From a bacterium (GTDB lineage: Bacteria > Patescibacteriota > Microgenomatia > JAMCZE01): DNA of 64,000 bases. The DNA lies in the NCBI GenBank assembly GCA_021836035.1, contig JAKBJL010000004.1, forward strand, positions 131,841-195,840. Direction: 5' to 3'. Positions 38,377 through 58,652 of this stretch are shown here, piece after piece. The position numbers and the translations under genes were made by a program. The notes beneath the pieces are model-generated. The model had not been told where the DNA came from, did no database searches, and saw only the letters and a list, made by a program, of their open reading frames with translations. Numbering within the stretch: position 1 is the stretch's first letter; each line of letters starts with the position of its first letter.

Positions 38377-40809
38377 TTACGGATAGTCGACAACAGACAT
38401 GTTAACCGCATCAGCGTCGATTGTCTTTCCAGAAGCTGATTTGCCCTCCGCTTTCACGACATGCTTTCCTGTAATCAAAGACCAAGAAACGGTGAACGGC
38501 TGGCTCGTTGTTGTTTGGTAAAACACACCATCAACATACCAGTCAACCTTTATAATATCGGCAGACGCATTGACCTTTAAGTCTAACGACTGGTTTTTGA
38601 CGAGTGTCGGAGCTGATTGATAAACCGCCTTGGATTCTGGTGATGTAACCGCCAAATAAGAGTTTTGCGATTGAGGGGTGCTTACTTGTCCGCACAGCGG
38701 CGAATAATCTTTAGGAATCGCAACTAAGTTGTTTTCCACGGCCCATTGGTAAACCTGGGGAGGATAATCCAGAAAGGTTTTTTCCATAACAGCCGACGGC
38801 GGACAACTATCTGTCGCCAATAAATCATTGCGGAGGTCCACTTTAACTGTCTTATAAATGTGGGAAATATTTTTAGGCTCTGTGCCTTCAATAAATAGCT
38901 CAGTTAGTCGATCGGTGCATAAATTATTCGGTAAAAGGCCATCCGCTTTGCAAATTTCAACTTCCTTCAGGCCCGGGGGACGGACAAAATTCTCAACCGT
39001 CTTTCCCTTGGCAAACTCTTCAAAAAATTGGTGCCAGATCGGTGCTGCCCCGGTAATTCCCGTTAATTGGGTCATTGGGTTGTTATCATTGTTTCCGACC
39101 CAAACACCGACAGAATATGAGGGAGTATATCCGACAGTCCAATTATCATGCCAATCGGTAGTCGTCCCGGTTTTAACTGCGGCCGGAAAAGATAACACCA
39201 GGGGATTTTTTTCGCCAAAACCTAAAATTCTGGCGTGGGGATCGGAAAGAATATTGGTAATCAGATAAGCTATTTGTTGGCTTTTTGCACCGAGCGCCGG
39301 CTTGGAATTAGGGATCTGGTGTTGATACAAAACCTTCCCGCCGTCATAGGTTATTTTTTCGATCGCGTATGGAGGCAAATAATTACCCCCACGAGAAAAG
39401 TCTGAGTAAACATTAGTTAAGTCTAACAGTGTTACTTCTCCGCCACCTAAGGTTAGCGCCAAGTCATATTTGGGATCTGGTGCTAAGGTAGTGATACCCA
39501 GGCTCGAAGCTGTATTAAGAAAACTTCCTATTCCGATTCGGTGAAACATTTCCACGGCGGGAAGGTTAAGTGATGAAGCTAAAGCTTCCCGGGCCAATAC
39601 TAATCCATGAAATTGGTTATCATAATTATTCGGGGCAAATCCTTCACCCTTATTAGTTTTGTAAACCGTACGCACGTCATAGATCAAGGTCGCTGGAGTA
39701 TATCCCTGCATAAAGGCGGTGGCATAAGTAATTGGTTTCAGGGCTGACCCTGGCTGGCGCGGGCTAGTAGTCAAATTGACTTGCCCGGCGTGCGTTGCGT
39801 CAAAATAATCTATCCCGCCCAACATTACTCTTATCGCACCCGTTTGATTTTCCAGCATAATAAGTGCCGCGTTGGACAGATTGTGATCGTCGCGTAGCTT
39901 GTTAACCCAATTACTGGCTATATCTTGGGCTAAAGAATAGTCTGGATAATCCAGGGTTGTGTAAACATTAATCCCCTGTTTTTGCTCCTTTATCCCGGTT
40001 TGTTCGATTTCTTGGCGAACATAATCTATAAAATGCGGGGCCTTAATCCGGTAACCGTCTCTGGACAGGATTATCGGTACGGATTTAGCAAGCGCTGCTT
40101 GATCGATGGTTATAAATTTATTCTTCACCATTAAATCCAATACCGTGGTCTGCCGTTGTTTTGCCTGTTCGAAATTCACATAAGGATTATTCCTGTCCGG
40201 GGAGGAAATCAGTCCGATCAAGAAAGCACTTTCGGCTAAAGAAAGATTATTAACGCTCTTATCAAAGTATGACAACGAGGCCGCTTGTATACCGTATGCC
40301 AAATTTCCAAAATACATTTGATTAAGATACGTTGTTAAGATAGATTTTTTAGAGTATAACGCCGTTAGCCTTAGGGCGATTATCATTTCCCGGATTTTAC
40401 GGACCACGCTTCTGGAGCTGGAAGACCGATCGGATATCACTAGCGCGCGTGCTAACTGCTGTGTAATTGTACTTGCCCCGCTGACGATCTTTTTTGCCTT
40501 AATATCTAAAAGCGCCGATCTTGCCATGGCCGGGATATCAATCCCCGAATTGGTCCAAAACGTGTTATCTTCAGAGGCAATTACGGCATTTTTTAAAGTG
40601 TCGGGGAGGTTATCATAGCTCACGGGGATTTTTCTCCCAATTCCCCCCGCTGATTCATAAAGTAAAATCCCGTTCCGGTCCCAAATTTTAACCGTTCCCG
40701 GGCTTTTTAGCTCCGGGTTAGTCCACCAGAAGGCAAGAACAAACAATCCGGCGAAGATAACTATCAGGACCTTAAAGCGAAGGCCGAAACTCTTCGGGTA
40801 AATCTTCAT
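38377..40809 (-). CDS. pbpC: bifunctional penicillin-binding protein, PBP1C-like (GT51 transglycosylase + transpeptidase)
   Basis: GT51 motifs (ASEDNTFWTNSGID, RKIREMIIALRL), transpeptidase SALKP (SxxK) and KTGTT, and an N-terminal TM anchor. Confidence 0.75.
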   Translation of the reverse strand: MKIYPKSFGLRFKVLIVIFAGLFVLAFWWTNPELKSPGTVKIWDRNGILLYESAGGIGRKIPVSYDNLPDTLKNAVIASEDNTFWTNSGIDIPAMARSALLDIKAKKIVSGASTITQQLARALVISDRSSSSRSVVRKIREMIIALRLTALYSKKSILTTYLNQMYFGNLAYGIQAASLSYFDKSVNNLSLAESAFLIGLISSPDRNNPYVNFEQAKQRQTTVLDLMVKNKFITIDQAALAKSVPIILSRDGYRIKAPHFIDYVRQEIEQTGIKEQKQGINVYTTLDYPDYSLAQDIASNWVNKLRDDHNLSNAALIMLENQTGAIRVMLGGIDYFDATHAGQVNLTTSPRQPGSALKPITYATAFMQGYTPATLIYDVRTVYKTNKGEGFAPNNYDNQFHGLVLAREALASSLNLPAVEMFHRIGIGSFLNTASSLGITTLAPDPKYDLALTLGGGEVTLLDLTNVYSDFSRGGNYLPPYAIEKITYDGGKVLYQHQIPNSKPALGAKSQQIAYLITNILSDPHARILGFGEKNPLVLSFPAAVKTGTTTDWHDNWTVGYTPSYSVGVWVGNNDNNPMTQLTGITGAAPIWHQFFEEFAKGKTVENFVRPPGLKEVEICKADGLLPNNLCTDRLTELFIEGTEPKNISHIYKTVKVDLRNDLLATDSCPPSAVMEKTFLDYPPQVYQWAVENNLVAIPKDYSPLCGQVSTPQSQNSYLAVTSPESKAVYQSAPTLVKNQSLDLKVNASADIIKVDWYVDGVFYQTTTSQPFTVSWSLITGKHVVKAEGKSASGKTIDADAVNMSVVDYP

Positions 40810-41334: not shown

Positions 41335-43917
41335 ATGGGAAACATAAACTGGCACAATCTGGAGGCGGGGTATTTATTAAGTCATTTCTCTTCTTATTCA
41401 GAATTACTTAAAGAAAGTTTATTTTCTGTCTCTTCCCGTTATTTTTTCCTCTCCCCTTCTTTTCTACTTTTGATATCCATAGCGCTCTCCCTTCTTATCG
41501 TTATTCGCAGGCTTTTTATCCTAAAAAGATCGCTGAGTGAAGAACCGGTATTTCTGGAACTGACCCCGCCGGCCCTCACCGATAAAACCTCTTATACCAC
41601 CGCCCGGCTTTTCTCCGTCGTCCACGAACTGGGGAAGATTGGGTACCCGGGCGATAAGCTTTTAGGTAAAAAGACCGTTTTTTCTTTTGAAATCTCCTCC
41701 ACCCTTAAGCAGGGTATTCGCTATTTCATACGGACTACCCGGACCGAAGAAGATAACATCAAAAAAAGCCTTTTAGCCTACCTTCCCCAAATAAGCGTTA
41801 AAGAAGCGACTGATTACCTGCCGGGAAAGGCCGGCGGTTTATTTTGCCTAAAAGTACTTGAATTTAAACTCAACCGCCACTTTGCCTTTCCCCTTAAAAA
41901 ACAGAATGTTTTGGAAGAACACGATCCCCTCGCCTACATAACCGGCATGATGACCAAGCTCAAACCCGGGGAATTAGTCTCTTTCCAAATTGTCCTGTCT
42001 CCGGTTCAGCCAAAGGAAACAGAGACTATCTCCGACAAGATTCTTCACGGCGATGATGTATTTAAGTATCTGGAAAGAATACCTCTACCGTCGCTTTTTA
42101 AACCGCTAACCTATGGCTTATCGCTTTTGTCTAAACTGCTGCATCCTTTCGCTGCCCTACCAAAAAGAACCTATAACACCTTCGAACAACAGGCGGTAAA
42201 AAGCATTCAGGAGAAAATCGAACAACCGCTTTTTGAGACTTCGGTCAGATTATTGCTTATGGTAAAGAACAAAAATCAGATAAGGGAAAGAAAAAACGGT
42301 TTTGTTTCCTCCTTGGCCACTTTCTCTGTGCCTAAATATCAGGCTTTTAAGGCCAAATATAATCTTCTGCCCTGGATCCTGGACAAAATTAACCTTTTTA
42401 ACTTCCAAAAGAGACGGTTGTCTTGGCTTTTAAATTCCAGTCCCGTGTATCTTTCTTTAGCTGAGGTTTCCGACCTCTATCACTTTCCATTTAAGAGGGT
42501 CACCCAGACAGAAGACCTGGTAAAAGTGTATGCCAAAGACCTTCCCGCGCCGTTATCGTTGAAAAACACCAAGCTTGATTATGTTTTTGCTAAAAACAGC
42601 TTCGGAGGTACGGTTACCGATATCGGGCTAACAGACAAGGAGAGGGAAAAACACGTGTACATTATCGGCGCTACCGGCACCGGCAAGACCACGATGATTA
42701 TGTCCATGGCCAATAATGACTTGAAAAACGGTAAGGGACTGTGTGTTATTGACCCTCACGGCGACCTGGCTGAAAGTATTATCGCCTGTGTTCCGGATGA
42801 AAGAATTTCGGATTTTATCTACTTTAACCCGGACGATATCAAATATCCCATCGGGCTAAATCTCTTGGAACTGACTCCCGGACTGGATGAAGACGAGCTT
42901 TTAAGGGAAAAAGAGCTGATTACCGAAAGCGTGGTGTCCCTGTTTAGGAAAATCTTCTCCGAAGTCTGGTCTGCCCATGCCCATAGGATTGAATATATCT
43001 TAAGAAACACCATCCAGACAGCTTTGTGCCTGAAAGATCCGACCATCTTTACCGCCTACCGCCTTTTGACCGATCCGGAGTTTCAAAAATCGGCTATGCA
43101 TGATGTCACGGATGAAAATTTGAAAAACTTCTGGAAAAACGAGTTTGGCAAGGCCGGCGATTTCCAGAAAGTGAAAATGATCGGGCCAATTACTTCAAGA
43201 ATCGGACGTCTTCTATTTTCTCCATCTGCTAAAAGGATTTTGGAACAGCCCAGGTCAACGATTAACTTTGATGAGATCCTGGACAAGGGAAAAATCCTGG
43301 TTTGCAACTTGTCTAAAGGCCGCCTGGGAGAGGATACGTCAGAAGTTTTGGGAATTATGATTTTAACTAAAATCCAGCTGGCTTCTCTTAAGAGGGCACG
43401 GATCGATGAAGGGAAAAGAAGTCCTTATTACGTTTACGTTGACGAATTCCAAACCTTTGCCACCCCGTCTTTTATCCAGATGATATCTGAGTCGAGAAAA
43501 TACAAGGTTTACCTCGTCATGGCCGAGCAGTCCACTTCCCAGCAAAAAGACCGCAATATAACAAACGTCATAATCGCCAACGTCGGAACAGTCATAAGTT
43601 TTCGAAGCGCCAACCCGGAGGATGAAAAACTGATGCTTCCGCAGTTTGAACCGTATGTTGATAAGGGAGAAATTACCAATCTGCCATCCTTCAAGTTCTA
43701 CATGAAGATATCAGCCATTACTCCCCGGGAACCTTTCTCCGGGGAAACGATTTTAACTCCGGTAAATAAGGATAAAGACCGGTGTACGTCGCTTATCCAA
43801 TCCTCGCGCAATTTGTATGCCAAAGAATATCTCGCTCCGGTTGCAACCAAAGTTATTCCCAGAGCAAAAAAGCCCGGAAAAGAAGAAGTTTTTGAATCGA
43901 TAAGCGTCCTGACTTAA
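41335..43917 (+). CDS. type IV coupling protein-like P-loop ATPase (VirD4/TraD/TraG superfamily)
   Basis: 860 aa with an N-terminal TM segment, Walker A IIGATGTGKTTMI, VIDPHGD and Walker B YVYVDEFQTF. Confidence 0.6.
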   Translation: MGNINWHNLEAGYLLSHFSSYSELLKESLFSVSSRYFFLSPSFLLLISIALSLLIVIRRLFILKRSLSEEPVFLELTPPALTDKTSYTTARLFSVVHELGKIGYPGDKLLGKKTVFSFEISSTLKQGIRYFIRTTRTEEDNIKKSLLAYLPQISVKEATDYLPGKAGGLFCLKVLEFKLNRHFAFPLKKQNVLEEHDPLAYITGMMTKLKPGELVSFQIVLSPVQPKETETISDKILHGDDVFKYLERIPLPSLFKPLTYGLSLLSKLLHPFAALPKRTYNTFEQQAVKSIQEKIEQPLFETSVRLLLMVKNKNQIRERKNGFVSSLATFSVPKYQAFKAKYNLLPWILDKINLFNFQKRRLSWLLNSSPVYLSLAEVSDLYHFPFKRVTQTEDLVKVYAKDLPAPLSLKNTKLDYVFAKNSFGGTVTDIGLTDKEREKHVYIIGATGTGKTTMIMSMANNDLKNGKGLCVIDPHGDLAESIIACVPDERISDFIYFNPDDIKYPIGLNLLELTPGLDEDELLREKELITESVVSLFRKIFSEVWSAHAHRIEYILRNTIQTALCLKDPTIFTAYRLLTDPEFQKSAMHDVTDENLKNFWKNEFGKAGDFQKVKMIGPITSRIGRLLFSPSAKRILEQPRSTINFDEILDKGKILVCNLSKGRLGEDTSEVLGIMILTKIQLASLKRARIDEGKRSPYYVYVDEFQTFATPSFIQMISESRKYKVYLVMAEQSTSQQKDRNITNVIIANVGTVISFRSANPEDEKLMLPQFEPYVDKGEITNLPSFKFYMKISAITPREPFSGETILTPVNKDKDRCTSLIQSSRNLYAKEYLAPVATKVIPRAKKPGKEEVFESISVLT

Positions 43918-43983: not shown

Positions 43984-44838
43984 TTGTCTATATATTACTT
44001 ATACAAGTATAAGGAGAGAAACAATATAAAAGCTGTTAAGGAACAAAAAAATATGAAGACTCCCCCTAAACTAAATCCCAGACTTGAAGAGATCCTCCTT
44101 CTAATTTACCGATTCCGATTTCTAACTACTTCTCAAATTCAAATCCTTCTTAATCATAAATATCACAGCCGTGTCAATCTCTGGCTAAATCAATTAACCG
44201 CTAGAAATTATCTCAAGCGCTACTATAACTTAAAATTTGCCGGTGAGCCAGCTTTATACTCTTTGGGAACTGCCGGAAGAAAATATTTCAAAACCCACAA
44301 AGAAATTAACAGAATAAAATTGTCGCTTCTTGATAGGGTTTGGACGGAGTACCGTAATTCCTCCCAATTTAAGCGTAACTGCCTGTTGCTGGCTGATATT
44401 TATATCTCCCTTTTAAGTTTAGCTAATAAAGCAAAAGCCAAGCTGGGTTTTTATTCCAAAGTCGATCTTTTCGGCATGAAATTTATGGTTTTGCCCGAAC
44501 CATCGTGTTATTTTTCCCTGGAAGACCAAAACGGCGTAACCAAACGCTATTTTCTGGATATCTTTGACTACTTTGTTCCCAAAGACCTTTTTAAACGGAT
44601 TAAAAAATACCTCTACTACTTTGAAAAACGCTACTGGCAGGACCATACCGACAAAACCTTCCCGGAGATAATCCTGGTCTGTCCCAATAAAGCGGCAAGA
44701 ACTTATCTGGAGAAAACCATCAGGGGCAACCTTGAAGATAAAGATTATTCCCTAACATTTTACTTGGCCTTGACAGAAGATATTCAGCAAAAAGGATTAA
44801 ACAGACAGGTATTACAAAAAGTAGAAATTCAATATTAA
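43984..44838 (+). CDS. replication-relaxation (Replic_Relax) family protein, putative relaxase/mobilisation protein
   Basis: An N-terminal wHTH-like LNPRLEEILLLIYRFRFLTTSQIQILL is typical of the Replic_Relax family. It sits directly downstream of the coupling ATPase. Confidence 0.5.
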   Translation: MSIYYLYKYKERNNIKAVKEQKNMKTPPKLNPRLEEILLLIYRFRFLTTSQIQILLNHKYHSRVNLWLNQLTARNYLKRYYNLKFAGEPALYSLGTAGRKYFKTHKEINRIKLSLLDRVWTEYRNSSQFKRNCLLLADIYISLLSLANKAKAKLGFYSKVDLFGMKFMVLPEPSCYFSLEDQNGVTKRYFLDIFDYFVPKDLFKRIKKYLYYFEKRYWQDHTDKTFPEIILVCPNKAARTYLEKTIRGNLEDKDYSLTFYLALTEDIQQKGLNRQVLQKVEIQY

Positions 44839-44875: not shown

Positions 44876-45733
44876 ATGAATTGGATAATTGCCAGCTTAG
44901 TAATGTTCGTTTCCTCGGTAGTGATGTATTTGTTTATCCGTAAATCGGCTTTACTAAAACTTCCTTCTCAATATAACAACCTCGCAATGTTTGGGATACC
45001 ATTATTCGTCTTTATTACCATAGGGTTGTTTTCAAAACAAAATTTCATAATTCCTTTTAACTATCTTCTCGCTATCTTTATAATTTCTATATTATTTAGT
45101 TATCTTGGAAACGTATTTTCTTTAATTAGTATCGAACGGTCTCCCAATCCTGGTTACAGCTTAGTAATCTCAAAAAGCTATGTAGTATTTACGACCATAC
45201 TTTCCGTTTTGTTCTTCAATTCCGAGTTGTCCATCAAGAAAGGGATCGCAATACTTCTTATCGTCGTATTTTCTGCACTCATAATGTTGTCGCAAAAATC
45301 TATAAAAAAAGTCTCTAACAATAGGTGGCTGTTCCTTGCTTTTGGAGCGTTTTTTTGCTGGGGCTTCTTATCTTTAGCCTCTAAATATATGTTTAACTTA
45401 GGGGTTGGGCTTTACGTATTTTTGTCTTATACCTACCTTTTCGTAAGTATTTGTATATTAATTGAAATGCATATTAAGAAAATGTCCCTCAAGTCATTTG
45501 TAAAGAATCCTTGGCAATTTTTATTAATCGGTCTTGCCTCGATTGGGTTCAATCTTTTTCTTTTCTTGGCAATAAAGCTGGCTCCAAATGTTGGATATGT
45601 TAATGCAATTAACGCTGGCTCAATTTCCGCGGTAACGGTACTAGCGATTTTATTATTTAAAGATGAATTTTCACTACGAAAGCTTGTTGGTGTAATTGGG
45701 GTTACAGCCGGACTTTTGATGCTGTTAATTTAG
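44876..45733 (+). CDS. polytopic membrane protein, DMT/EamA-like
   Basis: 285 aa with about 10 TM helices arranged as two similar halves. Confidence 0.35.
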   Translation: MNWIIASLVMFVSSVVMYLFIRKSALLKLPSQYNNLAMFGIPLFVFITIGLFSKQNFIIPFNYLLAIFIISILFSYLGNVFSLISIERSPNPGYSLVISKSYVVFTTILSVLFFNSELSIKKGIAILLIVVFSALIMLSQKSIKKVSNNRWLFLAFGAFFCWGFLSLASKYMFNLGVGLYVFLSYTYLFVSICILIEMHIKKMSLKSFVKNPWQFLLIGLASIGFNLFLFLAIKLAPNVGYVNAINAGSISAVTVLAILLFKDEFSLRKLVGVIGVTAGLLMLLI

Positions 45734-45800
45734 ACCAAAAAACCGCAAGCGAGAGGGGTTAGTCTCCCGCCTGCGGTTGAAAACTCACTTGCTCATGATT
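45733..45800 (-). terminator. repeat element Y copy 1: hairpin + T-run on minus strand, carrying the 3' tail (IMSK*) of a lost DUF2958-like gene
   Basis: gaccaaaaaaccgcaagcg..cgcctgcggtt..ctcacttgctcatgat is near-identical to the element at 47498..47551. Read on minus it gives ATCATGAGCAAGTGA = I-M-S-K-stop, a hairpin and a TTTTTT run. Confidence 0.5.
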
Positions 45801-47475: not shown

Positions 47476-47497
47476 AAATTTGAAAGATAAAACTTTA

Positions 47498-47545
47498 GAC
47501 CAAAAAACCGCAGGCAAGAGTTGTCAGTTCCCACCTGCGGTTATA
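47498..47545 (-). terminator. repeat element Y copy 2: rho-independent terminator of the DUF2958 gene
   Basis: A 9-bp stem aaccgcagg/cctgcggtt followed on minus by TTTTTT, immediately after the stop at 47549. Confidence 0.55.
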
Positions 47546-47548
47546 AGC

Positions 47549-47842
47549 TCACTTGCTCATGATCTCTGACAAGTGACAAGGCTTGAAATAGCGATCCCGT
47601 TCCACCGGCAATCCCAGCTTGCCCCGGTTGGAAGTAAGTTCGCTTAGGCTAAAGTAGCCCAGCTCCTTCTCAAACCCATCGACCAATCCGAAGAACTGGT
47701 CACGGCCATCAAACTCAATGGCGTACCAGGTCCAGGAAAAGTCCGGATAGAAGAACTTACAAATTATCATGGGATCTTTAACTTCCTCCTGGGAATAAAG
47801 CGGGGGCAGTTTTTCCAGAATATCTTTAGTCAAAAGCTGCAT
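47549..47842 (-). CDS. DUF2958-family protein (plasmid/ICE-associated)
   Basis: 97 aa from the ATG preceded by GGAGGTG. The ORF track extends it to a TTG at 47857. The pattern W.WY..EFDG...FGLV.G.E.ELGYFSL.EL resembles DUF2958. Confidence 0.45.
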   Translation of the reverse strand: MQLLTKDILEKLPPLYSQEEVKDPMIICKFFYPDFSWTWYAIEFDGRDQFFGLVDGFEKELGYFSLSELTSNRGKLGLPVERDRYFKPCHLSEIMSK

Positions 47843-47861
47843 CTTTATCACCTCCAATCTA

Positions 47862-47950
47862 AAAAATACGGATAGGAACTTTGTCCTGTCCGTTAAATTG
47901 GGGGCATGGGGTGAAAAGCGGGTGTCAAAAGTCGAAGCAAAGCGAGAGGA
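47862..47950 (-). promoter_or_regulatory. repeat element X copy A' (diverged), 5' leader of DUF2958 gene
   Basis: On minus it reads cttttgacacccgcttttcaccccatgcccccaatttaacGGACAGGACAAAGttcc, i.e. TTGACA plus a conserved GGACAGGACAAAG leader ending at the RBS. It forms a 16-bp inverted repeat with copy A. Confidence 0.45.
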
Positions 47951-47999
47951 TTTTAACGCCTGTCAGAAAAATGCCAACATCAGTAATAAGTCTTATTAA

Positions 48000-48088
48000 A
48001 ACCGCATTTTTCTACAGGCTTAAATACCCACCTTTTGACAGCCGGTTTGAACCCCATAAAATAAGAAGACAAGGACAGGACAAAGTTC
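48000..48088 (+). promoter_or_regulatory. repeat element X copy A: TTGACA-N16-TAAAAT promoter + CAAGGACAGGACAAAG leader, upstream of second AbiE pair
   Basis: ggcttaaatacccaccTTTTGACAgccggtttgaaccccaTAAAATaagaagaCAAGGACAGGACAAAG. Confidence 0.5.
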
Positions 48089-48237
48089 TAAAAGGGTTTA
48101 GGAATACTTTATCCCTAAGATAATAAAAACATTTATATAATCGATTCCACTTTTGCCGGCATTCCTCTTGACAGGGACACAAAAATAATCTTTTATGTAC
48201 TAAATATCTTAAATATTAAGATGTATAGTACATTTAT

Positions 48238-48828
48238 ATGATATCCATGGATAATGATTTTATATTATCTCTTTATCGCCGGCCGGAAACCGTTTTTAGT
48301 GTTGATGAGATCGCCCAGCTTTTTCCCCATCTATCAACGGAAAGCTTGCGTAACCGTCTCTACTATTTCAGTAAATCCGGCAAGCTGAAAAGACTTCATA
48401 CCGGAATTTATGCCAAAGAGGGCTATAATAACTTTGAACTAGTTAATAAACTGTACAAGCCTTCCTATATCAGTCTGGAAACCGTTCTTAGTCGTGGCGG
48501 AGTCATCTTTCAGTATTACGAGACCATCTTTGCCGTTTCTTATGTTACCCGGGAGGTCCGGTTAAACAACTTGGGGATACAGTATCGCCGGGTAAAAGGT
48601 CCTGTTTTAACAAACTTGACTGGAATTAATCGGGAAAACGGTTACTTTATCGCTTCATTGGAGCGGGCTTTCCTCGATGCCATTTATGTCTACAAAAACT
48701 ATCACTTTGATAATTTAAGAGGCCTTGATTGGGATAAGGTAGCTGTTTTTAAAACAATTTATAACAACGCCATTCTGGAAAAGAAAGTTGAGGAGTATTA
48801 TCAGACTTTTAAAGAAGAAAATGCTTAA
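48238..48828 (+). CDS. AbiEi-like antitoxin (second copy, divergent sequence)
   Basis: 196 aa with an N-terminal HTH-like region, a C-terminal domain, and an overlapping downstream AbiEii-type gene. Confidence 0.5.
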   Translation: MISMDNDFILSLYRRPETVFSVDEIAQLFPHLSTESLRNRLYYFSKSGKLKRLHTGIYAKEGYNNFELVNKLYKPSYISLETVLSRGGVIFQYYETIFAVSYVTREVRLNNLGIQYRRVKGPVLTNLTGINRENGYFIASLERAFLDAIYVYKNYHFDNLRGLDWDKVAVFKTIYNNAILEKKVEEYYQTFKEENA

Positions 48829-49525
48829 TATTGATTTACATCGTAATATGGAAATTTCCATATTAAAAGCAATTTATGCTGATCCTTTTTTACGCAATAT
48901 TTTAGGATTTAAAGAAGGAACAGCGGCGATGCTTTTTTACGATTTACCGCGATTTTCCGTTGATCTCGATTTTAATTTGCTCGACGAGAATAAACAATAC
49001 GAAGTTTTTGAGAAAATAAAAAAGTTGCTTTTAAACTTCGGGGTACTTGATGATGCTTCCGATAAAAAAAACACGCTTTTTTTTCTTTTAACTTACCAAA
49101 AAGGGGAAAGAAAATTGAAAATAGAAATCTCCAAAAGGCCGCTGCAGTTTGTTTACCTACCGAAAAATTATTTAGGTATTTCCATGCTGGCTATGCAGGA
49201 AAAGGACATGCTACCCGCTAAACTATCAGCTCTTTTAACCAGACGGAAGTTTGCGGCCCGGGATATGTATGATTTGTGGTTTTTCCTAAAAAACAACTGG
49301 CCGATAAATGAAAATATCCTTAAGCAGAATACCGATTTATCGGTTAAAGAAGCTTTCATGGAAGCCCAAAAAAAGATTGCGGCGGTTAAAAAAAGCGAGA
49401 TGTTGTCCGGTATAGGGGATTTACTGGATAATAAACAGAAATCCTGGGTAAAGGAAAAACTTCGTGATGAATTGATCTTTCAGTTGAAATTGCACTCACA
49501 AAACTATCAAAATAAAAGTGACTAA
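48821..49525 (+). CDS. AbiEii-family nucleotidyltransferase toxin (second copy)
   Basis: FKEGTAAMLFYDLPRFSVDLDFN. Its ATG at 48821 overlaps the upstream stop in ATGCTTAA, so the pair is probably translationally coupled. The ORF track starts at 48788. Confidence 0.65.
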   Translation: MLNIDLHRNMEISILKAIYADPFLRNILGFKEGTAAMLFYDLPRFSVDLDFNLLDENKQYEVFEKIKKLLLNFGVLDDASDKKNTLFFLLTYQKGERKLKIEISKRPLQFVYLPKNYLGISMLAMQEKDMLPAKLSALLTRRKFAARDMYDLWFFLKNNWPINENILKQNTDLSVKEAFMEAQKKIAAVKKSEMLSGIGDLLDNKQKSWVKEKLRDELIFQLKLHSQNYQNKSD

Positions 49526-49539
49526 CCCTTTTTGAACTT

Positions 49540-49704
49540 CTACCGTAGATTAAAACCGCATTTTTCTACAGGCTGAAAACCCGCCTTTTGACGGCCGGTT
49601 TGACCTTTGGGCGGATATTCCCAGGCTTTTTTAAATCCCAACTTACCATAGAAGTCGATAACTTTCTCAAAATCTGGAACATGAAGTTCGAAGATGACGT
49701 CAAA
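49540..49704 (-). pseudogene. start-less N-terminal fragment of a VOC/glyoxalase-family gene
   Basis: Minus-strand frame FDVIFELHVPDFEKVIDFYGKLGFKKAW... (VOC motif) with no start codon. Its tail overlaps repeat element X copy B. Confidence 0.35.
49553..49625 (+). repeat. repeat element X copy B (5' half conserved, 3' half diverged)
   Basis: aaaaccgcatttttctacaggctgaaaacccgccttttgacggccggtttgacc shares about 50 nt with copy A, and then diverges. Confidence 0.4.
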
Positions 49705-49718
49705 TTAAGCCAGCCTAC

Positions 49719-50207
49719 TCACCCTTTCATTGTAGCAAGTTTCTCTTCGCGCTGATCTCTGCCTTTTTTAACCAGGTCCTGAAATTTTTGGTTAAACTCC
49801 GGATCTTCAAAAACTGTTTCCGTGCCGATAACCGGTAACTCGCCATGAAGATATCCGGCACTTACCAAAGCCTGGCGGTTTTCCGGTGTGTCAAAACCCG
49901 CCAAAATCCCTTCAGGAGAAAGGGCTGTCAGCATGCTGTTATTGGCTGAATATTTTCCGCGCTGCTCTTTCTTATAGGCGGGAAATTCCGTAGATCGGGA
50001 ATAATAATCACGGTGGCCGGGATTATCCAAGCCAAGGATTAAACTTCCCTCCCCGCTTCCTGGGTGATCTCCGTGGTTAGTTATCCGGTCGTATTCTGCC
50101 TTGTCTGCAGCATTGGCAAAAGCTCTTTTGCCGGAGACATTAAGAAATTCTCCTCCGATGAGAGGTTTAAGTTCCGAAGTTAAGTTGAGGTCTTCTTTGG
50201 TATCCAT
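49719..50207 (-). CDS. hypothetical protein
   Basis: An ORF of 162 aa with no recognised motif. It sits between the second AbiE pair and the secreted tandem-domain gene. Confidence 0.3.
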   Translation of the reverse strand: MDTKEDLNLTSELKPLIGGEFLNVSGKRAFANAADKAEYDRITNHGDHPGSGEGSLILGLDNPGHRDYYSRSTEFPAYKKEQRGKYSANNSMLTALSPEGILAGFDTPENRQALVSAGYLHGELPVIGTETVFEDPEFNQKFQDLVKKGRDQREEKLATMKG

Positions 50208-50349
50208 GAACAGTTTATATCAATAAATAAGATAAAAAGCAAAAAACCTTTATATCTCGTTAACTACAATGTAATCCTCTTTAACCCAGCCGGGACGTGA
50301 ATAAATCTCCACACGGCACTCGTCATCACTTTGTGATAAGATAAGTTTA

Positions 50350-51513
50350 ATGGAACAAACTAGTCCTTTAGCAAACCCAGTAATACCTCCCCAGGCGCCG
50401 CTTAATCCAACGGTCAACTCTTCATCCCCAAACAAACGCGTTTTAATTATTCTATTGGTAATCTTGCTGGTGGCCTTATCTTCCTTAGCTGCCTATCTTT
50501 TTGTTAAATCACAGGCTCCGTCCCAAAAGCCAACAATTGCTACATCTCCATCAGTCCAAGCAACACCTACTCCGGGCCCGGTGGCAGATTGGAAAACCTA
50601 TACAAACTCTTCATTTGGTTTTTCATTCCGATATCCCGCCGACTGGAATGCAGAATGGGACAATCAAGTAACTGTTAAGAACGGGGATGGAAATTACGCG
50701 TTAGTTATTATCCCCTCAAATAATTCAAAGCATTTGTCGCTAAAAGACTACGTCACAACTGCTCCATATACCAGTCTTCACGAGGATCATCGGCTGACAT
50801 TGTCTCAGTTTAATTCAGCTGAAAATATATTTATAAATACAATACCTGCTATAAAAACACAGGAGGTATCAGGAGGAATAGCCGGAACCTCCGAAAATAT
50901 TTATTTAGTAAAAAATAATACCTTCCTTTTTATCAGCTATCCGGCTAAGAATAATTCATACTTTTCTAATTCGGCTCAAAATTATCAGATTGTCCAACAA
51001 ATCCTCTCCACTTTTAAATTTACAGATCAAAATCAGGCAACCAATACCTCAAATTGGAAAACGTATACAAACGTAAGCTCCGGCTTTTCCGTCAACTATC
51101 CATCAGATTATTTTACCTATAAAGACCCACTGGTTGATTTCTCGGTGGCAACGAAGGCACCTCAGGGGGGAAATGGAATCAAAAACTCTGCTCCCAAGGA
51201 TATTTGGCTCGATATACAAGTTAGCAAAAATACAACAAACACTTCGCTGGATGCATATATTACCCAACTAAATGCTTCTTCTTTAAAAAGAATGCCAACG
51301 ACAATTGGTGGTATTGCTGGTGATAAGCTTAGCTATATGATGCAAGTTTTTTGCGCCGGTACGACCTGCACACCGGTGTACCTATATGAAGGATTAGTTT
51401 TACATAACGGCAATATCTACCAAATTAGAATGTCTTCGTTAGACAAATCGTCACTTGATGCAAATAATGCAATGTTTGATCAAATCCTCTCCACTTTTAA
51501 ATTTACGCAGTAA
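50350..51513 (+). CDS. secreted tandem-domain protein of the 'NWKTY...STFKFTQ' family
   Basis: A TM/signal segment and a PT-rich linker precede two repeats. The first contains DWKTYTNSSFGFSFRYPADW and ends QQILSTFKFTDQ; the second contains NWKTYTNVSSGFSVNYPSDY and ends DQILSTFKFTQ. Confidence 0.45.
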   Translation: MEQTSPLANPVIPPQAPLNPTVNSSSPNKRVLIILLVILLVALSSLAAYLFVKSQAPSQKPTIATSPSVQATPTPGPVADWKTYTNSSFGFSFRYPADWNAEWDNQVTVKNGDGNYALVIIPSNNSKHLSLKDYVTTAPYTSLHEDHRLTLSQFNSAENIFINTIPAIKTQEVSGGIAGTSENIYLVKNNTFLFISYPAKNNSYFSNSAQNYQIVQQILSTFKFTDQNQATNTSNWKTYTNVSSGFSVNYPSDYFTYKDPLVDFSVATKAPQGGNGIKNSAPKDIWLDIQVSKNTTNTSLDAYITQLNASSLKRMPTTIGGIAGDKLSYMMQVFCAGTTCTPVYLYEGLVLHNGNIYQIRMSSLDKSSLDANNAMFDQILSTFKFTQ

Positions 51514-51539
51514 TTTAGAGATCTCATTTAACTTCCGCA

Positions 51540-51635
51540 GTCGACTACAAATGTATTCTTTTACCGGCTTAAACCCGCCTTTTGACAGATCATTTAAACC
51601 CTATATAACGAAAAGGCAGGACAGGACGAAGAGAG
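51540..51635 (+). promoter_or_regulatory. repeat element X copy C: TTGACA-N16-TATAAC promoter + CAGGACAGGACGAAG leader upstream of S51 peptidase operon
   Basis: ccggcttaaacccgccTTTTGACAgatcatttaaaccctaTATAACgaaaagGCAGGACAGGACGAAG. Confidence 0.5.
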
Positions 51636-51731
51636 AAAAAGTATTTTCGAGGATCTTCAGTTATAAAGCTTTTGATGGAAAATACTCGAACGTATTACGA
51701 TTGATAAATGTAATTATAGTAAAATGTATCT

Positions 51732-52787
51732 GTGAAGTTATTATTTTTAACCTCTGTCGGATTACCTCCAGAAACCAGAGAATATTTTTTAAAGGAACTT
51801 CCCAAAAAACCCGAGGAAATGAAAGTGGCTTTTATTCCGACAGCCGCTGATCCGGAGGAAAACAAAGGGTTTGTCAGGGCAGCCTACGATGAATTGGTAG
51901 AACTTAAATTTCCCGTTATCCAAGTTGATCTGAAAGAATCAAAAGAGAAAGTCCGAACGAAGTTGGAAAAAGCGGATATTATTTACATTAACGGCGGCAA
52001 TACTTTTTACCTTTTAGATTGGGCTCGAAAAAGCGGCTTGGATACATATCTTCCGAAGCTAATTAATAATGGAAAAGTATATCTTGGAGTTAGTGCCGGC
52101 AGTATTTTAGCGGGACCGGATATTGCCATTTCCGGTTGGGACCCGTCATGGGATAAAAACGATTATGTCTCGGATACAACCGGTTTAAACCTTGTACAGT
52201 TTGCAGTCTCTCCGCATTATACGGAAAAAGAAAGACAGGTGTTGGAAAAAGAAGGAAGAAAAGTAACCTTTCCGGTAATTGCTATAAGTGACGAGCAGGC
52301 GATTCTAGTTAAAGATGGAAGCTGGAAAGTAGTTGGGAAAGGGAAACCGGAATTTTATGGTGCGAAGTTTTCAAATGATGATGATTTTTACCGTCTACTG
52401 GAAAGCTTAACAGATAACGAGTGGAATACTAGAGTTGATGATATGTGGACGGTCAAGAATGTAGTAGCTCATTTAGTCGGCTGGGAAGAAGAACTCTCTA
52501 AATTATTACCTCAGATTTGGAAAAATCAGGAAAAACCATGGTTTACAGAAACTAACAACTGGGATGAGCTTAACGAAAAGAGCACAGATAAGTTTAAAGG
52601 CTTCACTCCTAGACAACTCCTAGACGAATGGTATAAATGGCAAGGAAAATTAATGAAAGAGGCAGAAAAGATTGGAGAAAATAATATGCGATCACGGCCG
52701 GATTTATTTGGTTGGTGGTTTGAAGAGGGAGAAGAAAGTCACTATCAAACGCATTATAAACAAATAAGGAAAGCTTTAAATAAATGA
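51732..52787 (+). CDS. peptidase S51 (PepE/cyanophycinase-like) domain fused to DinB_2/YfiT-like domain
   Basis: The N-terminal half has GGNTFYLL and GVSAGS (Ser nucleophile context). The C-terminal half has WTVKNVVAHLVGWEEE, a DinB-type helical bundle. Confidence 0.5.
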   Translation: MKLLFLTSVGLPPETREYFLKELPKKPEEMKVAFIPTAADPEENKGFVRAAYDELVELKFPVIQVDLKESKEKVRTKLEKADIIYINGGNTFYLLDWARKSGLDTYLPKLINNGKVYLGVSAGSILAGPDIAISGWDPSWDKNDYVSDTTGLNLVQFAVSPHYTEKERQVLEKEGRKVTFPVIAISDEQAILVKDGSWKVVGKGKPEFYGAKFSNDDDFYRLLESLTDNEWNTRVDDMWTVKNVVAHLVGWEEELSKLLPQIWKNQEKPWFTETNNWDELNEKSTDKFKGFTPRQLLDEWYKWQGKLMKEAEKIGENNMRSRPDLFGWWFEEGEESHYQTHYKQIRKALNK

Positions 52788-53161
52788 AGGGCACAAGGAT
52801 TAATCCATTATTAGTTGTAAAAGACATCGAAAAGTCAGTCGATTTTTACGAGAACCTATTGGGTTTTAAGAAGAACACGGTTTTAAAAAATGGCGATAGC
52901 AGTTTGCGGTATGTGGATTTTACCGTTGGCACCTCAGTTTTAATGCTGGTTCCAGAAAGCACCAGAGCAGAAATTCCAGATAAAGGAAACGGGGTAGAGC
53001 TTTACATTGATATTGATGAGGATATTAAAGCTCTTTTTGAATGTTTAAAAAGTAAAGGCATGATCTTTATAAAAGAACTTTACGAAACTCCCTGGCAAAC
53101 CTATCAATTTCATTTTAAAGATCCGGACGGATATGTGTTAATTGTTTCACAACAAGCATGA
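52784..53161 (+). CDS. VOC-family protein (glyoxalase/bleomycin-resistance fold)
   Basis: 125 aa with N-terminal VVKDIEKSVDFYENLLGFKK; 4-nt overlaps with both neighbours. Confidence 0.65.
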   Translation: MKGTRINPLLVVKDIEKSVDFYENLLGFKKNTVLKNGDSSLRYVDFTVGTSVLMLVPESTRAEIPDKGNGVELYIDIDEDIKALFECLKSKGMIFIKELYETPWQTYQFHFKDPDGYVLIVSQQA

Positions 53162-53643
53162 CTTGGAGTAGATATAAAACCAACACTATCGACGAATTTA
53201 CCCTGTCTTTAGAAACCCTTGCTTTAGAAATTGCAAAGATAGCAGAACAAAATAGTAAAAAGTATATGATCGGGGGTGGGTGGGCACTAGAACTTACGCT
53301 GGGTAAAATAACCAGAAACCACCATGATATCGATTTCTTTCCATTAAAAGATGATGTCGTTTGGTGGCGGAATTGGTTTGAAAGCCAAGGCTTAAAAACG
53401 AAAGATGAACAAACTAATGAAGGTTTAATCATTAAGGTCTTAGGTAACAAGAAAGAAACGCTTGTGGATATGGTGCCATCAGATTTGGGCAATGTTATGT
53501 CCGTTATTTACAAAGGCATAAAAATCTTTATCGATGATCCCCAAAAAATCCTGGACGAGAAGCTACGTAATGCTAAAGAAGGAAAGCCATTAAGACGCCA
53601 GGATCTTCACGATATTTCTATAATGGGGAGAAAACTAAAATAG
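53158..53643 (+). CDS. Lnu/ANT(2'')-like nucleotidyltransferase (PF10706-like)
   Basis: 161 aa. MIGGGWALELTLGKITRNHHDIDFF parallels the LnuA/ANT(2'') core GGWGVD.L.GKQ.R.H.DID. Confidence 0.5.
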   Translation: MTWSRYKTNTIDEFTLSLETLALEIAKIAEQNSKKYMIGGGWALELTLGKITRNHHDIDFFPLKDDVVWWRNWFESQGLKTKDEQTNEGLIIKVLGNKKETLVDMVPSDLGNVMSVIYKGIKIFIDDPQKILDEKLRNAKEGKPLRRQDLHDISIMGRKLK

Positions 53644-54297
53644 TTACTCTTTACCTTCCCATTCAGAGATAAACCTACGGGCAAATTCTTCTACAAACTT
53701 GAAGCGTTCCTTTGCATATTTTCTTCCCAGTCTGGTATGAAAGTTTGTGGGCTGCATTTTGGGATGGGAAATCTTGTACAGCAAATAATTGATTGCTGAT
53801 TTATTGTTATCTTCCAGTTTGTTTGAGGGTTTTCCGTCATAAATAGGTCTTCTATACTTTTTTGATTGGAATGAGCTTCCAATAATTCGGGCCACATCAA
53901 TAGCCCCTAAAGCGTCAAGGTAATCCGCATCCTGAAGAATTTTGGCCTCGGTAGTTTCGGGAACCCGGTCCATGCTTTTTCTATGAACCAATATCGCATG
54001 GCAAACTGGTTCGATCTTTTCTTTAGGAAAGTTGATCTTATATAAGATTTCCCGGGCAATATCACTGCCTGCCTTTGCGTGATCTTCGACTTCTCCTCTG
54101 TCTTCTAACCCACGGGCAACATCAAAAAGAAGTGTGGCCGCCTCAAGAATTTCAAGGTCTGCTTCCTCATCCTGGCCAATTTGCTTTGCTAATCTCTCCA
54201 CCCGGAAAACATGGTTAATATCATGGGAGAAGTCGTTATTTAGCTCCTCGTAATATTTACTGGTTAGGTTTAGAATCTTATCCTTGAAATTGCTCAT
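53644..54297 (-). CDS. HD-domain phosphohydrolase
   Basis: HVFRVERLAKQI ... ILVHRKSMDR ... DADYLDALGA (H..HD..D pattern). Confidence 0.6.
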   Translation of the reverse strand: MSNFKDKILNLTSKYYEELNNDFSHDINHVFRVERLAKQIGQDEEADLEILEAATLLFDVARGLEDRGEVEDHAKAGSDIAREILYKINFPKEKIEPVCHAILVHRKSMDRVPETTEAKILQDADYLDALGAIDVARIIGSSFQSKKYRRPIYDGKPSNKLEDNNKSAINYLLYKISHPKMQPTNFHTRLGRKYAKERFKFVEEFARRFISEWEGKE

Positions 54298-54389
54298 ATA
54301 TCAATACTACTTATTCTATATCGATCTGTTATTGGTAACTAGATCTTAATTTCTTGTAATTTTCTTCGTTGGATAATCCAAATAATTCC

Positions 54390-54482
54390 ATACTTTTCTA
54401 ATTCGGCTCAAAATTATCAGATTGTCCAACAAATCCTCTCCACTTTTAAATTTACACAGTAATTTAGCGATCTCATTTAACC
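54390..54482 (+). pseudogene. 3' remnant of a 'STFKFTQ'-family gene (duplicate of parts of 50350..51513)
   Basis: The segment is about 95% identical to 50951..51024 joined to 51507..51530. It encodes ...NSAQNYQIVQQILSTFKFTQ* without an upstream start. Confidence 0.55.
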
Positions 54483-54580
54483 TCCGCAGTCGACTACAAA
54501 TGTATTCTTTTACCGGCTTAAAACCACCTTTTGACAGGTCCTTTAAACCCTATATAACGAAAAGCAGGACAGGACAAAAT
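54483..54580 (+). promoter_or_regulatory. repeat element X copy D (near-identical to copy C)
   Basis: ccggcttaaaaccaccTTTTGACAggtcctttaaaccctaTATAACgaaaagCAGGACAGGACAAAA. Confidence 0.5.
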
Positions 54581-54729
54581 CCACTCGGAACCTGATAAGA
54601 TTTGTAACAGGTTGATATACTAAATTAACCACATTACCACCCTTGCTTCTGGATGCGGCTGAAGTAAATCCAGGAGTAGTCAATTTTTGACAGGGTGGTA
54701 ATTTATTTTTACCAATATCGGTAAAATAT

Positions 54730-54879
54730 AAGGAATTTAACTCGGAACGAGCTGGCAAGATTAGCAAAAATGGACAGAAGCGGGTTAACCGATATCGAAA
54801 GCGGTAAAAATAACATTACACTGCGGACCCTTCTTAAAATTGCCCGCGCTCTTAATGTTAAGGTAAGTGAATTAGTATA
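54730..54879 (+). pseudogene. 5'-truncated XRE/Cro-type HTH regulator
   Basis: The frame NLTRNELARLAKMDRSGLTDIESGKNNITLRTLLKIARALNVKVSELV* is a typical XRE HTH core. It lacks helix 1 and any in-frame start after the upstream stop. Confidence 0.35.
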
Positions 54880-55042
54880 AAGGGAGTTTGATCTATTAAA
54901 ATATCTTGCAAATGGCCGATAAATAGTACTATATTAGCCACATGACCACGATTAGCGATTATCTGTGTGTCAGGAACCAACCGTCATAGGTTGGTTTTTT
55001 TGTTTAAAAATTGAAATTTAAACGGAAAGGGGGTGAAAAAAT

Positions 55043-57548: not shown

Positions 57549-58060
57549 GAACGACCGTTATCCCGGCCCAGATCACGACAGTTGAAGACAAGATCGCGGG
57601 CAACCTGAACTTAACCCAGATTTTAATTCTTCTCATACCCGTATTTTGGACAACCGTCGTTTACGCTTTCTTTGCCCCGGGGGTAAAACTTGTCTGGTAT
57701 AAATTCCCGCTGATTTTGGCGGTGCTTTTTATCTGTTTAGCCCTGGCGATCCGGCTTAAGGGAAAGGTCGCTTTAGAGTGGCTCATGGTTCTTTTAAAGT
57801 ATCGCTTAAGGCCGAAATACTATCTGTTTGACAAAAACAGCCCCTACCTTCGCCCCCGGGACCTGCCGGTATTTGAAAAGAAGCCTGTATTTAACAAACC
57901 AAAAGTCTCAAAAATTGAGGCTCGGCCGCCGGCTGGCGATTTCCCACCGGGAGAAATAATTAAACTGGACAATCTGCTTGTCCAACATAACTACACCTTA
58001 AGTTACAAAGCGGGAAGGAGGGGAGGTATCCGTGTGGCCCTGGAAAAAATTCCGAAATAA
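57545..58060 (+). CDS. VirB3/PrgI-like small membrane protein
   Basis: 171 aa with two adjacent TM helices, located immediately upstream of the VirB4 reading frames. Confidence 0.4.
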   Translation: MRTTVIPAQITTVEDKIAGNLNLTQILILLIPVFWTTVVYAFFAPGVKLVWYKFPLILAVLFICLALAIRLKGKVALEWLMVLLKYRLRPKYYLFDKNSPYLRPRDLPVFEKKPVFNKPKVSKIEARPPAGDFPPGEIIKLDNLLVQHNYTLSYKAGRRGGIRVALEKIPK

Positions 58061-58652
58061 AGCCAGCTCCAGACAACAAATCCAGGTTAAGGAGGTCAAG
58101 GACTCCATCCTGGTCCTGCCCAAGAACCAGTACCGGATAATTCTGGAAACCTCCTCCTTTAACTTTGAGCTCAAAAGCGAGGAGGAACAGGACGTTTTGG
58201 TTGATTCCTTCCAGAATTTCCTCAACTCCCTTCCCTGCCAACTGCAAATTCTTATCCGTATCCGGGATGTGGATATTGACCGCTACCTCGAGCAGATCTC
58301 CCGGACGAAGCATGATGAAAAAGAGCAAGTTTACAAAGAGCAGATAAGCAACTATTGCCTTTTTGTAAAAGGGATCGTCTCGGGCAATAAAATCCTCTCC
58401 CGGCGCTTTTATGTGATTATCCCCTACCGCCACCCCGCAGGGGCAAACGACTTTAACCTTGCCAGGGAGCAGATAAATCTAAACCGCGATATTGTGATAC
58501 GGGGTCTTGAGAAGCTTGGCCTGAAAGCCCGGCAACTGGCCAGCCTGGAAATTCTTGACCTTTTTTACAGTTTCTACAATCCCCACCAGACTAAAACCCA
58601 AAAGCTAAAAGGGCAAACCCTGCAAATGCTTTTGCAAAATAATGATGTTTAA
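58032..58652 (+). CDS. virB4: VirB4/TraE N-terminal domain (separate ORF; gene split by +1 frame change)
   Basis: The N-terminal-domain-like sequence (ILETSSFNFELKSEEEQDVLVDSFQNFLNSL) ends 11 nt inside the start of the ATPase ORF, which is in the +1 frame. Confidence 0.45.
   Translation: MWPWKKFRNKASSRQQIQVKEVKDSILVLPKNQYRIILETSSFNFELKSEEEQDVLVDSFQNFLNSLPCQLQILIRIRDVDIDRYLEQISRTKHDEKEQVYKEQISNYCLFVKGIVSGNKILSRRFYVIIPYRHPAGANDFNLAREQINLNRDIVIRGLEKLGLKARQLASLEILDLFYSFYNPHQTKTQKLKGQTLQMLLQNNDV

Follow-up and report, generated by a model that had tools for sequence, protein, structure and literature searches.

What is the function of two promoter-like repeats that face each other, head to head, beside a small gene of a conjugative element? 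The question is raised by a 64,000-nucleotide (nt) stretch of contig JAKBJL010000004.1 (GenBank assembly GCA_021836035.1), here called the window, in which an initial annotation had described at least five related elements (copies A to E below) and had likened the facing pair, A and B, to an invertible promoter switch. We find that A and B form one 213-nt quasi-palindrome (47876-48088) whose arms are complementary almost throughout, and that it lies 5' of a gene for a 97-residue DUF2958 protein (47549-47842 on the minus strand; Pfam PF11171, E = 8.5e-15), the gene being on the side of the arm that would serve as template. The architecture, conservation and synteny of A/B, established below, suggest with a probability of about one half that it is a strand-specific, Frpo-like single-strand promoter driving DUF2958, and that the arm distal to this gene is also an ordinary double-strand promoter.

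Architecture and conservation of the A/B element

The copies are a real family. At its core is a sigma-70-type promoter, and a conserved GGACAGGAC box occupies about +4 to +12. Searched with a profile of the five copies, the window gave exactly five matches (nhmmer; 51540-51631, 47992-48089, 54489-54584 and 49545-49610 on the plus strand and 47989-47875 on the minus strand), whose E-values lie between 1e-25 and 3e-16, the match after these having E = 0.5; the other 57 kb held no further unit in this search. The degenerate core pattern TTTTGACRG-N5-TTNRAMCYY occurs five times in the window against 0.67 expected. The repeat family noticed earlier is borne out, although its members are less uniform than had been proposed. 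Spaced TTGACA-N16 promoters are found in B, D and E, but D and E carry TATAAC, A has GCCCCC where a -10 should be, and C is truncated; the leader box GGACAGGAC is found in A, B, D and E but not in C; and only in A does the leader lie just upstream of a ribosome binding site, 33 nt from the DUF2958 ATG (47842), whereas the next gene is 100-190 nt beyond B, D and E. Folded as RNA, the solo copies and the leaders are no more stable than shuffled sequences (z from -0.8 to +1.2), and Rfam gave no match to the region at the gathering threshold, a permissive scan returning only chance matches (E > 0.2); the leader is invariant and so offers no sites for RNA covariation.

As single-stranded DNA, A/B folds with a minimum free energy (MFE) of -54.4 kcal/mol (z = -9.3). 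The 16-bp inverted repeat already recognized at its ends is perfect (16/16, with 181 nt between its arms), but it is only the outermost part of a complementarity that spans almost the whole 213 nt. This outer stem joins the left, or template, arm (47876-47891), whose minus strand reads GGACAGGACAAAGTTC and corresponds to the leader of the DUF2958 transcript, to the right arm (48073-48088), whose plus strand reads the same GGACAGGACAAAGTTC as the leader box of the rightward transcript. An internal loop follows, with its left-arm side at 47892-47905 (GTTAAATTGGGGGC on the plus strand) and its right-arm side at 48058-48072 on the plus strand, the latter unpaired in MFE folds from A(-11) to about +3. 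Opposite the -10, the left-arm side has an invariant GGGGC, and T(T/C)(A/G)AT marks the place where the RNA is predicted to start, at an A within TTAAC of the minus strand. The inner stem is formed by the left-arm stretch 47906-47931 (CCCCAT, spacer and -35 TTGACA on the minus strand), which is 85% complementary to 48032-48057 of the right, non-template arm. That arm (48032-48062, plus strand) consists of CTTTTGACA, a -35 at 48035-48040, a 16-nt spacer and a -10, TAAAAT, at 48057-48062, so that copy B holds a TTGACA-N16-TAAAAT promoter (48035-48062) matching the consensus at 11 of 12 positions. Beside the left -35 is the region of a small central hairpin (47932-47950), degenerate in the window and present as a 5-9 bp stem in relatives, and the center of the element is taken up by an inner inverted repeat (47951-48024; TTTTAACGCCTGTCAGAAAAATGC ... 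GCATTTTTCTACAGGCTTAAA) that is paired in the fold around an apical loop at 47975-48003.

The pattern TTTTGACA-N10-ACCC-N12-20-GGACAGGAC returned 38 metagenome loci, among them one chance match and one element cut by a contig end, and the other 36 (36/37 real loci) have a head-to-head pair like A/B. Because the pattern fixed part of one arm, three loci were added that had been picked solely by DUF2958 homology, and all three carry the element. A scan of GTDB species representatives with CCTTTTGACAG-N27-33-GGACAGGAC gave three matches, all by chance (nhmmer scores of at most 11.7 bits); either these representatives do not include the source lineage, or that lineage differs at the pattern. Elements are either 138-158 nt or 195-222 nt long, and the extra inner inverted repeat is confined to the longer class, which includes the window (9-10 of 36 elements).

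When 36 elements are aligned and folded with DNA parameters, the outer stem is paired in all of the MFE folds, and most show the same consensus structure: an outer stem in which GTCCTGTCC pairs with GGACAGGAC; a symmetric 14x14 loop; an inner stem in which CCCCAT pairs with ATGGGG, the spacers pair with each other and the -35 pairs with TGTCAA of the proximal arm; and a small apical hairpin. The loop opens right after T(-12), so that A(-11) is the first unpaired base, and closes about 3 nt beyond the point where transcription is expected to start, in agreement with the extent of the open complex that RNA polymerase forms at sigma-70 promoters.

The two arms, equal in length, differ in one conserved respect. 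The distal arm reads CCTTTTGA(C/T)A, a 16-nt spacer ending in CCCCA, TATAAT, a variable purine-rich 8-9 nt and AGGACAGGACAA; toward DUF2958, the proximal arm reads CTTTTGACA, a spacer whose last bases are CCCCA, TGCCCC, four bases that vary, T(T/C)(A/G)AT and GGACAGGACAAA. A TTGA(C/T)A-N16-TATAAT promoter on the distal side is therefore matched on the proximal side by the same -35 and leader with GCCCC in the place of the -10, and the proximal arm has no acceptable sigma-70 -10. The distal hexamer is TATAAT in 33 elements, TAAAAT in two and CATAAT in one, its promoter scoring 11-12 of 12 in relatives, and the template arm shows little or no variation in GGGGCATGGGG across the alignment. A -10 hexamer that hardly varies, followed by a discriminator that does, is typical of promoters and not of nick sites.

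Variation in the central hairpin bears on whether it is the DNA that folds. In 8 of 30 distinct sequences, T-A pairs at positions 2-6 of its stem are replaced by C-G or G-C pairs, and its loop ranges from 2 to 16 nt (an end-anchored count). Because it is placed between the two -35 boxes, this hairpin would be transcribed from neither arm, and its compensatory changes point to selection on DNA structure. The arms themselves offered one compensatory pair of 32, which is uninformative because they are nearly invariant.

Equally constant is the setting. In more than 20 loci the gene order is that of a type IV secretion system (T4SS) coupling protein (T4CP), a MOBC (Replic_Relax) relaxase, a convergent DUF2958 gene and then the element, and in relatives only the DUF2958 gene, of ~300 bp, separates element and relaxase gene. 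DUF2958 lies 28-58 nt beyond the arm without a -10 in 32/32 informative loci, in two of which RadC comes first and DUF2958 second. The arms are 88-90% identical in nucleotide sequence between loci whose DUF2958 genes have 56% nucleotide and 45% amino acid identity, and the relaxases of the relatives are 24-52% identical to that of the window. These data leave little of the proposed switch, in which recombination at the 16-bp repeats would flip the 181-bp segment and turn its -10-bearing arm either toward DUF2958 or toward the cargo. A perfect inverted repeat around a segment with a single such arm is what this scheme calls for, since inversion would redirect the promoter, but the TATAAT arm is distal to DUF2958 in every informative assembly, with the inverted orientation in 0/32 from many samples. 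Moreover, no recombinase domain was found in the scanned open reading frames of 41.3-60.5 kb (small frames, 58032-58652 and the part beyond 60.5 kb being outside the scan), none is conserved beside the element in relatives, and the complementarity runs through the whole segment rather than just its ends. We regard inversion as very improbable.

Gene content varies somewhat around DUF2958: in L047 a RadC gene lies between the element and a gene for a 147-residue DUF2958 protein, and in L045 a mer operon lies between DUF2958 and the relaxase gene.

On the other flank is variable cargo, and here the element might be taken for an ordinary divergent regulatory region acting in double-stranded DNA, in which the right arm would be a strong cargo promoter and the left arm and both GGACAGGAC boxes would be operators of an element-encoded regulator that co-regulates DUF2958 and the cargo promoters, solo copies included. 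This is essentially what the initial annotation had in mind, and the consensus promoter on the right arm fits it, as does a same-strand gene following that arm in 20/33 loci, in many of them starting about 50-160 nt after it. The box at +4 to +12 is in a typical operator position, and solo copies without a pairing partner (D and E of the window, L035 and L006) still have GGACAGGAC; a sequence-specific role for it, as operator, initial transcribed sequence or 5' untranslated region, is therefore plausible, and the idea of a shared operator or leader box plausibly retains some room. As an account of the whole element, however, such a region is improbable. The left arm has no usable -10 and yet DUF2958 always follows it; the first cargo gene is antisense in 10/33 loci and the right arm, TATAAT included, is kept intact there; two independent double-strand sites need neither equal arm lengths nor ~50 nt of complementarity; the central hairpin acquires compensatory changes without being transcribed; and no regulator gene is conserved beside the element. 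Its persistence where the cargo-side gene is antisense, together with its tie to DUF2958, the MOBC relaxase and the T4CP, also makes A/B a backbone module and not, as had been supposed, a cargo element.

A candidate single-strand promoter for DUF2958

How could an arm without a -10 serve the gene that always follows it? In the mechanism that we propose, the plus strand would become single-stranded, as after conjugative transfer, and A/B would fold into a hairpin in which the 3' arm (48032-48088) is the non-template strand of a consensus sigma-70 promoter and the 5' arm (47876-47931) is the template. The -35, the spacer and the bases from +4 onward would be paired, with -11 to about +3 held open because the template arm has GGGGC opposite the -10. 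RNA polymerase would bind this ready-made open complex, transcribe leftward into the monocistronic DUF2958 gene and stop at its strong terminator, the RNA beginning with A's, at about AAU-GGACAGGACAAAG (AAU-GGACAGGAC...). The template arm lacks a -10, and DUF2958 should therefore go silent once the complementary strand has been made; in duplex DNA, the same -35/-10 strand would fire rightward into the following cargo as an ordinary promoter. Three parts of this scheme are inferred: transfer of the plus strand, use of the hairpin by RNA polymerase, and a role for DUF2958 in early establishment.

A single-strand promoter is the simplest model because it accounts at once for the asymmetry of the arms, the position of the loop, the fixed orientation and a DUF2958 gene with no promoter of its own. 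The mechanism has a precedent in Frpo (PMC9849209, PMC11541004, PMC7690428), and three of the features expected of such promoters are seen in the sequence: a stable imperfect hairpin, hexamers on the 3' arm whose -35 becomes double-stranded by pairing with the 5' arm, and a fixed orientation with the gene after the template arm.

The Frpo/ssi elements of F-like and IncI plasmids (Masai & Arai, 1997; Couturier et al., 2023, PMC9849209; Samuel et al., 2024, PMC11541004) are, like A/B, imperfect hairpins of one strand that rebuild a -35/-10 duplex for the host RNA polymerase, and A/B would share with them strand specificity, a position 5' of a small establishment-type gene and a predicted silence in double-stranded DNA. 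Unlike Frpo, A/B is 140-220 nt long instead of about 320-330 nt (the F Frpo2 fold), has full consensus hexamers, and opens the stretch from -10 to +3 as a clean symmetric 14x14 loop instead of by scattered mismatches; its hexamer arm is also a complete double-strand promoter in the opposite direction, and it is present in a single copy per element, beside the relaxase gene, in a host that probably belongs to the Patescibacteria. F Frpo2 folds as a 320-nt hairpin with z = -7.4, and the comparison of this fold with A/B is one of whole hairpins.

Other folded or palindromic elements are further removed. The single-strand origins ssoA and ssoU of rolling-circle plasmids and sso1 of ICEBs1 are folded single-stranded DNA with promoter-like boxes, at which RNA polymerase makes a primer in an orientation-dependent manner. 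Their products are short primers with no gene and ribosome binding site after them, whereas the template arm of A/B runs straight into DUF2958. The conserved sso motifs RSB and CS-6 are not evident in A/B, although no search aimed at them was made. Correia, ERIC and MITE-like repeats are, as A/B is, imperfect palindromes, 100-200 bp long, whose promoter boxes face outward, but they are dispersed through genomes in many copies, while A/B is one unit per element at a fixed position in the backbone.

Several observations weigh against a single-strand promoter. That the plus strand is ever single-stranded is an assumption, and the model demands neither the invariance of GGGGCATGGGG on the template arm, nor that of GGACAGGAC, which extends to the solo copies, nor the extra inner inverted repeat of the long forms. 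In L047, an insertion of ~62 nt lies in the template-arm side of the internal loop (about 4335-4500 in reverse-complement view). The pairing of the arms rests on complementarity only, because they are too conserved for covariation, and the metagenome pattern, which fixed part of the left arm, introduces an ascertainment bias. There is no sequence similarity to Frpo of F: blastn-short and nhmmer comparisons with F 54000-67500 gave only chance 10-11-mers. Finally, a large inverted repeat beside a MOBC relaxase gene also has the appearance of an origin of transfer (oriT).

Resemblance to an origin of transfer, and the solo copies

The last of these points deserves weight of its own. The main alternative, less probable in our view and proposed tentatively, is that the quasi-palindrome is the oriT of the MOBC-relaxase element, comparable to pAD1 oriT2 and pAM373 oriT, and that the relaxase nicks inside the inverted repeat; such a role would be compatible with that of a promoter. 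The gene at 43984-44838 (plus strand; Pfam) encodes a candidate relaxase of the Replic_Relax family (PF13814), which CONJscan equates with MOBC (PMC5357655 Table 1; PMC3424549), the commonest relaxase class in Patescibacteria (PMC12102498). The oriT sequences acted on by the MOBC relaxase TraX resemble A/B in being inverted repeats of ~140 bp that have an internal loop and, at the apex, a small hairpin, and that lie near T4CP-like and Replic_Relax/MOBC genes. The 142-bp repeat of pAM373, between its T4CP-like and replication-relaxation genes, consists of an outer stem of 18 bp, a 17x12 internal loop, an inner stem of 25 bp and an apex of 27 nt; in overall plan and in size it agrees with the short form of the element. 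TraX reportedly nicks within the inverted repeat and recombines two copies of oriT2, and the repeat is said to be homologous between plasmids of different specificity. No other large inverted repeat was seen in the backbone near the relaxase gene.

The resemblance stops short of the details. There is no sequence similarity between pAM373 oriT and A/B, and the pAM373 repeat has no -35/-10 pair. It is accompanied by five to six 12-nt direct repeats, whereas TRF, applied to the 250 nt on each side of A/B, detected no comparable series; the repeats found near the element are 2.4 copies of CAGGA at the arm ends (two of GGACA at each end) and one to three GAAGC units at the apex, 2.6-2.8 copies of GAAGC being reached in a few loci. 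The element is placed beyond DUF2958, not between T4CP and relaxase, and its inverted repeat is invariant although the relaxases are as little as 24-52% identical to that of the window. An oriT alone would also leave unexplained the perfect TTGAYA-N16-TATAAT, the loop from -11 to +3, the variable discriminator and the absence of a promoter for DUF2958.

The gap between the T4CP and relaxase genes has three short conserved structures of its own in several relatives (L013, L018, L023, L033, L040, L041 and others): a terminator after the T4CP gene, a perfect palindrome, CCTTATA(T)ATAAGG (CCTTATATATAAGG), and an anti-SD/SD hairpin, TCCTCCC-N6-GGGAGGA, that would sequester the Shine-Dalgarno sequence (SD) of the relaxase gene. 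These could serve translational control or be an alternative oriT candidate. A ~35-bp inverted repeat with a promoter, seen in the search for other oriT candidates, lies upstream of the T4CP gene.

The solo copies bear on the same question. All five (C, D and E of the window and those of L035 and L006) are right halves that start in the apical loop, in direct orientation and on the cargo side. Recombination or insertion would leave such a pattern, and in the oriT scheme they would arise by relaxase-mediated recombination at oriT or by Campbell-type insertion of circular cargo DNA, which we likewise treat as a tentative proposal. Within the promoter reading as well, C, D and E would be solo right halves of hairpin elements, left behind at the junctions of cargo modules.

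Copy C (49558-49604, plus strand) is a remnant, consisting of the right half of the inner inverted repeat, a -35 (TTGACG) and part of the spacer, in which it ends at about 49604 with neither a -10 nor GGACAGGAC; it matches model positions 2-67 only of the nhmmer profile. Copies D (51553-51627, plus strand; -35 at 51582-51587, TATAAC at 51604-51609, GGACAGGAC at 51619-51627) and E (54502-54575, plus strand; -35 at 54531-54536, TATAAC at 54553-54558, GGACAGGAC at 54567-54575) retain TTGACA-N16-TATAAC, in which the key T at -7 has been lost. D lies upstream of genes for an S51-DinB fusion, a glyoxalase and a nucleotidyltransferase and, judged from its hexamers, may be a weak ordinary promoter for this operon, as may E for a truncated Xre gene. 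Both are part of a 154-nt repeat (51462-51615 and 54411-54564, 90% identical) that includes the 3' end of a PsbP-like gene, and the link noted earlier between two copies and duplicated gene ends is therefore confirmed. It had been argued that elements found only within longer duplicated blocks would be mere segmental duplications; D and E are indeed found in such blocks, but the A/B unit is not.

The PsbP-like gene (50350-51513) encodes two domains whose C-terminal ends resemble each other (repeat stretches 50957-51024 and 51440-51507). The 68-nt end of its first domain recurs with 100% identity at 54389-54456, fused to the 3' untranslated region of the gene's own end, and precedes copy E; this stretch is the remnant of a single-domain PsbP-like relative and marks a cargo-module junction. 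Beyond copy E, an Xre-type helix-turn-helix frame at 54740-54880 on the plus strand (...LTRNELARLAKMDRSGLTDIESGKNNITLRTLLKIARALNVKVSELV*) has a stop two codons before its first conserved residue and no normal start codon, and it is probably an N-terminally truncated pseudogene.

Next to B, 48160-48235 holds a further sequence that resembles a promoter (CTTGACAGGG...), together with a palindrome of 14-15 nt (ATGTACTAAATATC...GATGTATAGTACAT), directly 5' of an AbiEi-like gene (48238-48828). This is probably the autoregulated promoter of the toxin-antitoxin pair itself, and the right arm of B is therefore not that pair's sole promoter. In relatives, the cargo beside the TATAAT arm includes a gene for a bAvd-like four-helix protein (L047 1325-4179; right flanks of L013, L015 and L016), in L047 together with a reverse transcriptase (RVT_1), a combination that looks like a diversity-generating retroelement.

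The conjugative element and its DUF2958 gene

By Pfam scans, 41.3-60.5 kb of the window is a conjugative element. A T4CP gene (41335-43917, plus strand) precedes the relaxase gene; a cargo stretch encodes EamA, two AbiE pairs, DUF2958, the PsbP-like protein, the S51-DinB fusion, glyoxalase, nucleotidyltransferase and an HD protein; and after the cargo come a PF18895 pilin, TrbL, PrgI and VirB4. A/B belongs to the backbone of this element, whose origin is probably in Patescibacteria, to judge by the PF18895 pilin, the genes present and contigs of 0.37-0.58 Mb. A tblastn search of PLSDB with the window relaxase gave no match, and gene orientation gave no direction of transfer. Immediately left of the element, a 2183-residue alpha-2-macroglobulin-like protein (31769-40809, minus strand) is encoded beside a PBP1-type transglycosylase/transpeptidase, and from this chromosomal pair the left boundary can probably be placed near 40.8-41.3 kb. 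Outside the element, near tRNA-Asp and tRNA-Gly genes, 30722-30794 on the minus strand matches the Rfam DUF3800-II RNA motif (67.7 bits against a gathering threshold of 43.2).

The DUF2958 gene converges on the relaxase gene and ends at a strong intrinsic terminator (47506-47542, minus strand), a hairpin with a T-run whose stem and T7-8 are conserved in relatives. A direct repeat of ~70 nt (45729-45799 and 47494-47563, 86-89% identical) contains this type of terminator, the second copy of which lies at about 45741-45778, and brackets an AbiEi/AbiEii_1 pair. The AbiE block and EamA look inserted, with the terminator duplicated, because they are absent between relaxase and DUF2958 in relatives.

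What DUF2958 does is suggested by the company it keeps. A search gave 2,928 DUF2958 homologues. Homologues are found in 178 PLSDB plasmids, 120 of them conjugative; of two plasmid neighborhoods examined, one has genes for an ArdC-like zincin and a ParB-like protein and the other DUF932 and ParB-like genes, and the leading region of F also holds DUF932 and ParB-like genes. By association only, DUF2958 would fit an early or establishment role; its predicted fold gave no functional lead. In Salipiger abyssi pPABY8 (L044, 5541-6070), a 526-nt spacer 5' of an unrelated DUF2958 gene forms a long template-strand hairpin (z = -3.2), and the region 5' of DUF2958 in an E. coli IncHI-type plasmid forms no such hairpin (z = -1.4). 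That hairpin promoters serve DUF2958 in other lineages is suggestive at best.

The study of single-strand promoters is an active field (Nature 2024; Nat Commun 2023; bioRxiv 2026), and the validated examples are nearly all Frpo homologues of enterobacterial plasmids. If our reading is correct, A/B would be an independent and far more compact design, whose geometry fits the RNA polymerase open complex base for base, with duplex to -12 and an open stretch from -11 to +3. It also touches the open question of whether the T4SS of Patescibacteria conjugate at all (PMC12102498): a noncoding hairpin kept at 88-90% identity beside T4CP and MOBC relaxase genes, while the proteins have drifted to 25-50%, argues that transfer of single-stranded DNA is under selection. 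More speculatively, and in our view unlikely as a whole, one hairpin may combine the role of oriT, for a MOBC conjugative element of Patescibacteria, with that of a pre-melted single-strand promoter, so that one sigma-70 strand has two templates: in the single-stranded state the opposite hairpin arm, for transcription leftward into DUF2958, and in the duplex state the complementary strand, for transcription rightward into the cargo. If so, the direction of transcription would report whether the DNA has just been transferred, and the element would be sequence-level evidence that T4SS elements of Patescibacteria move single-stranded DNA. A/B provides a DNA signature by which such elements can be found, and a first functional handle on DUF2958.

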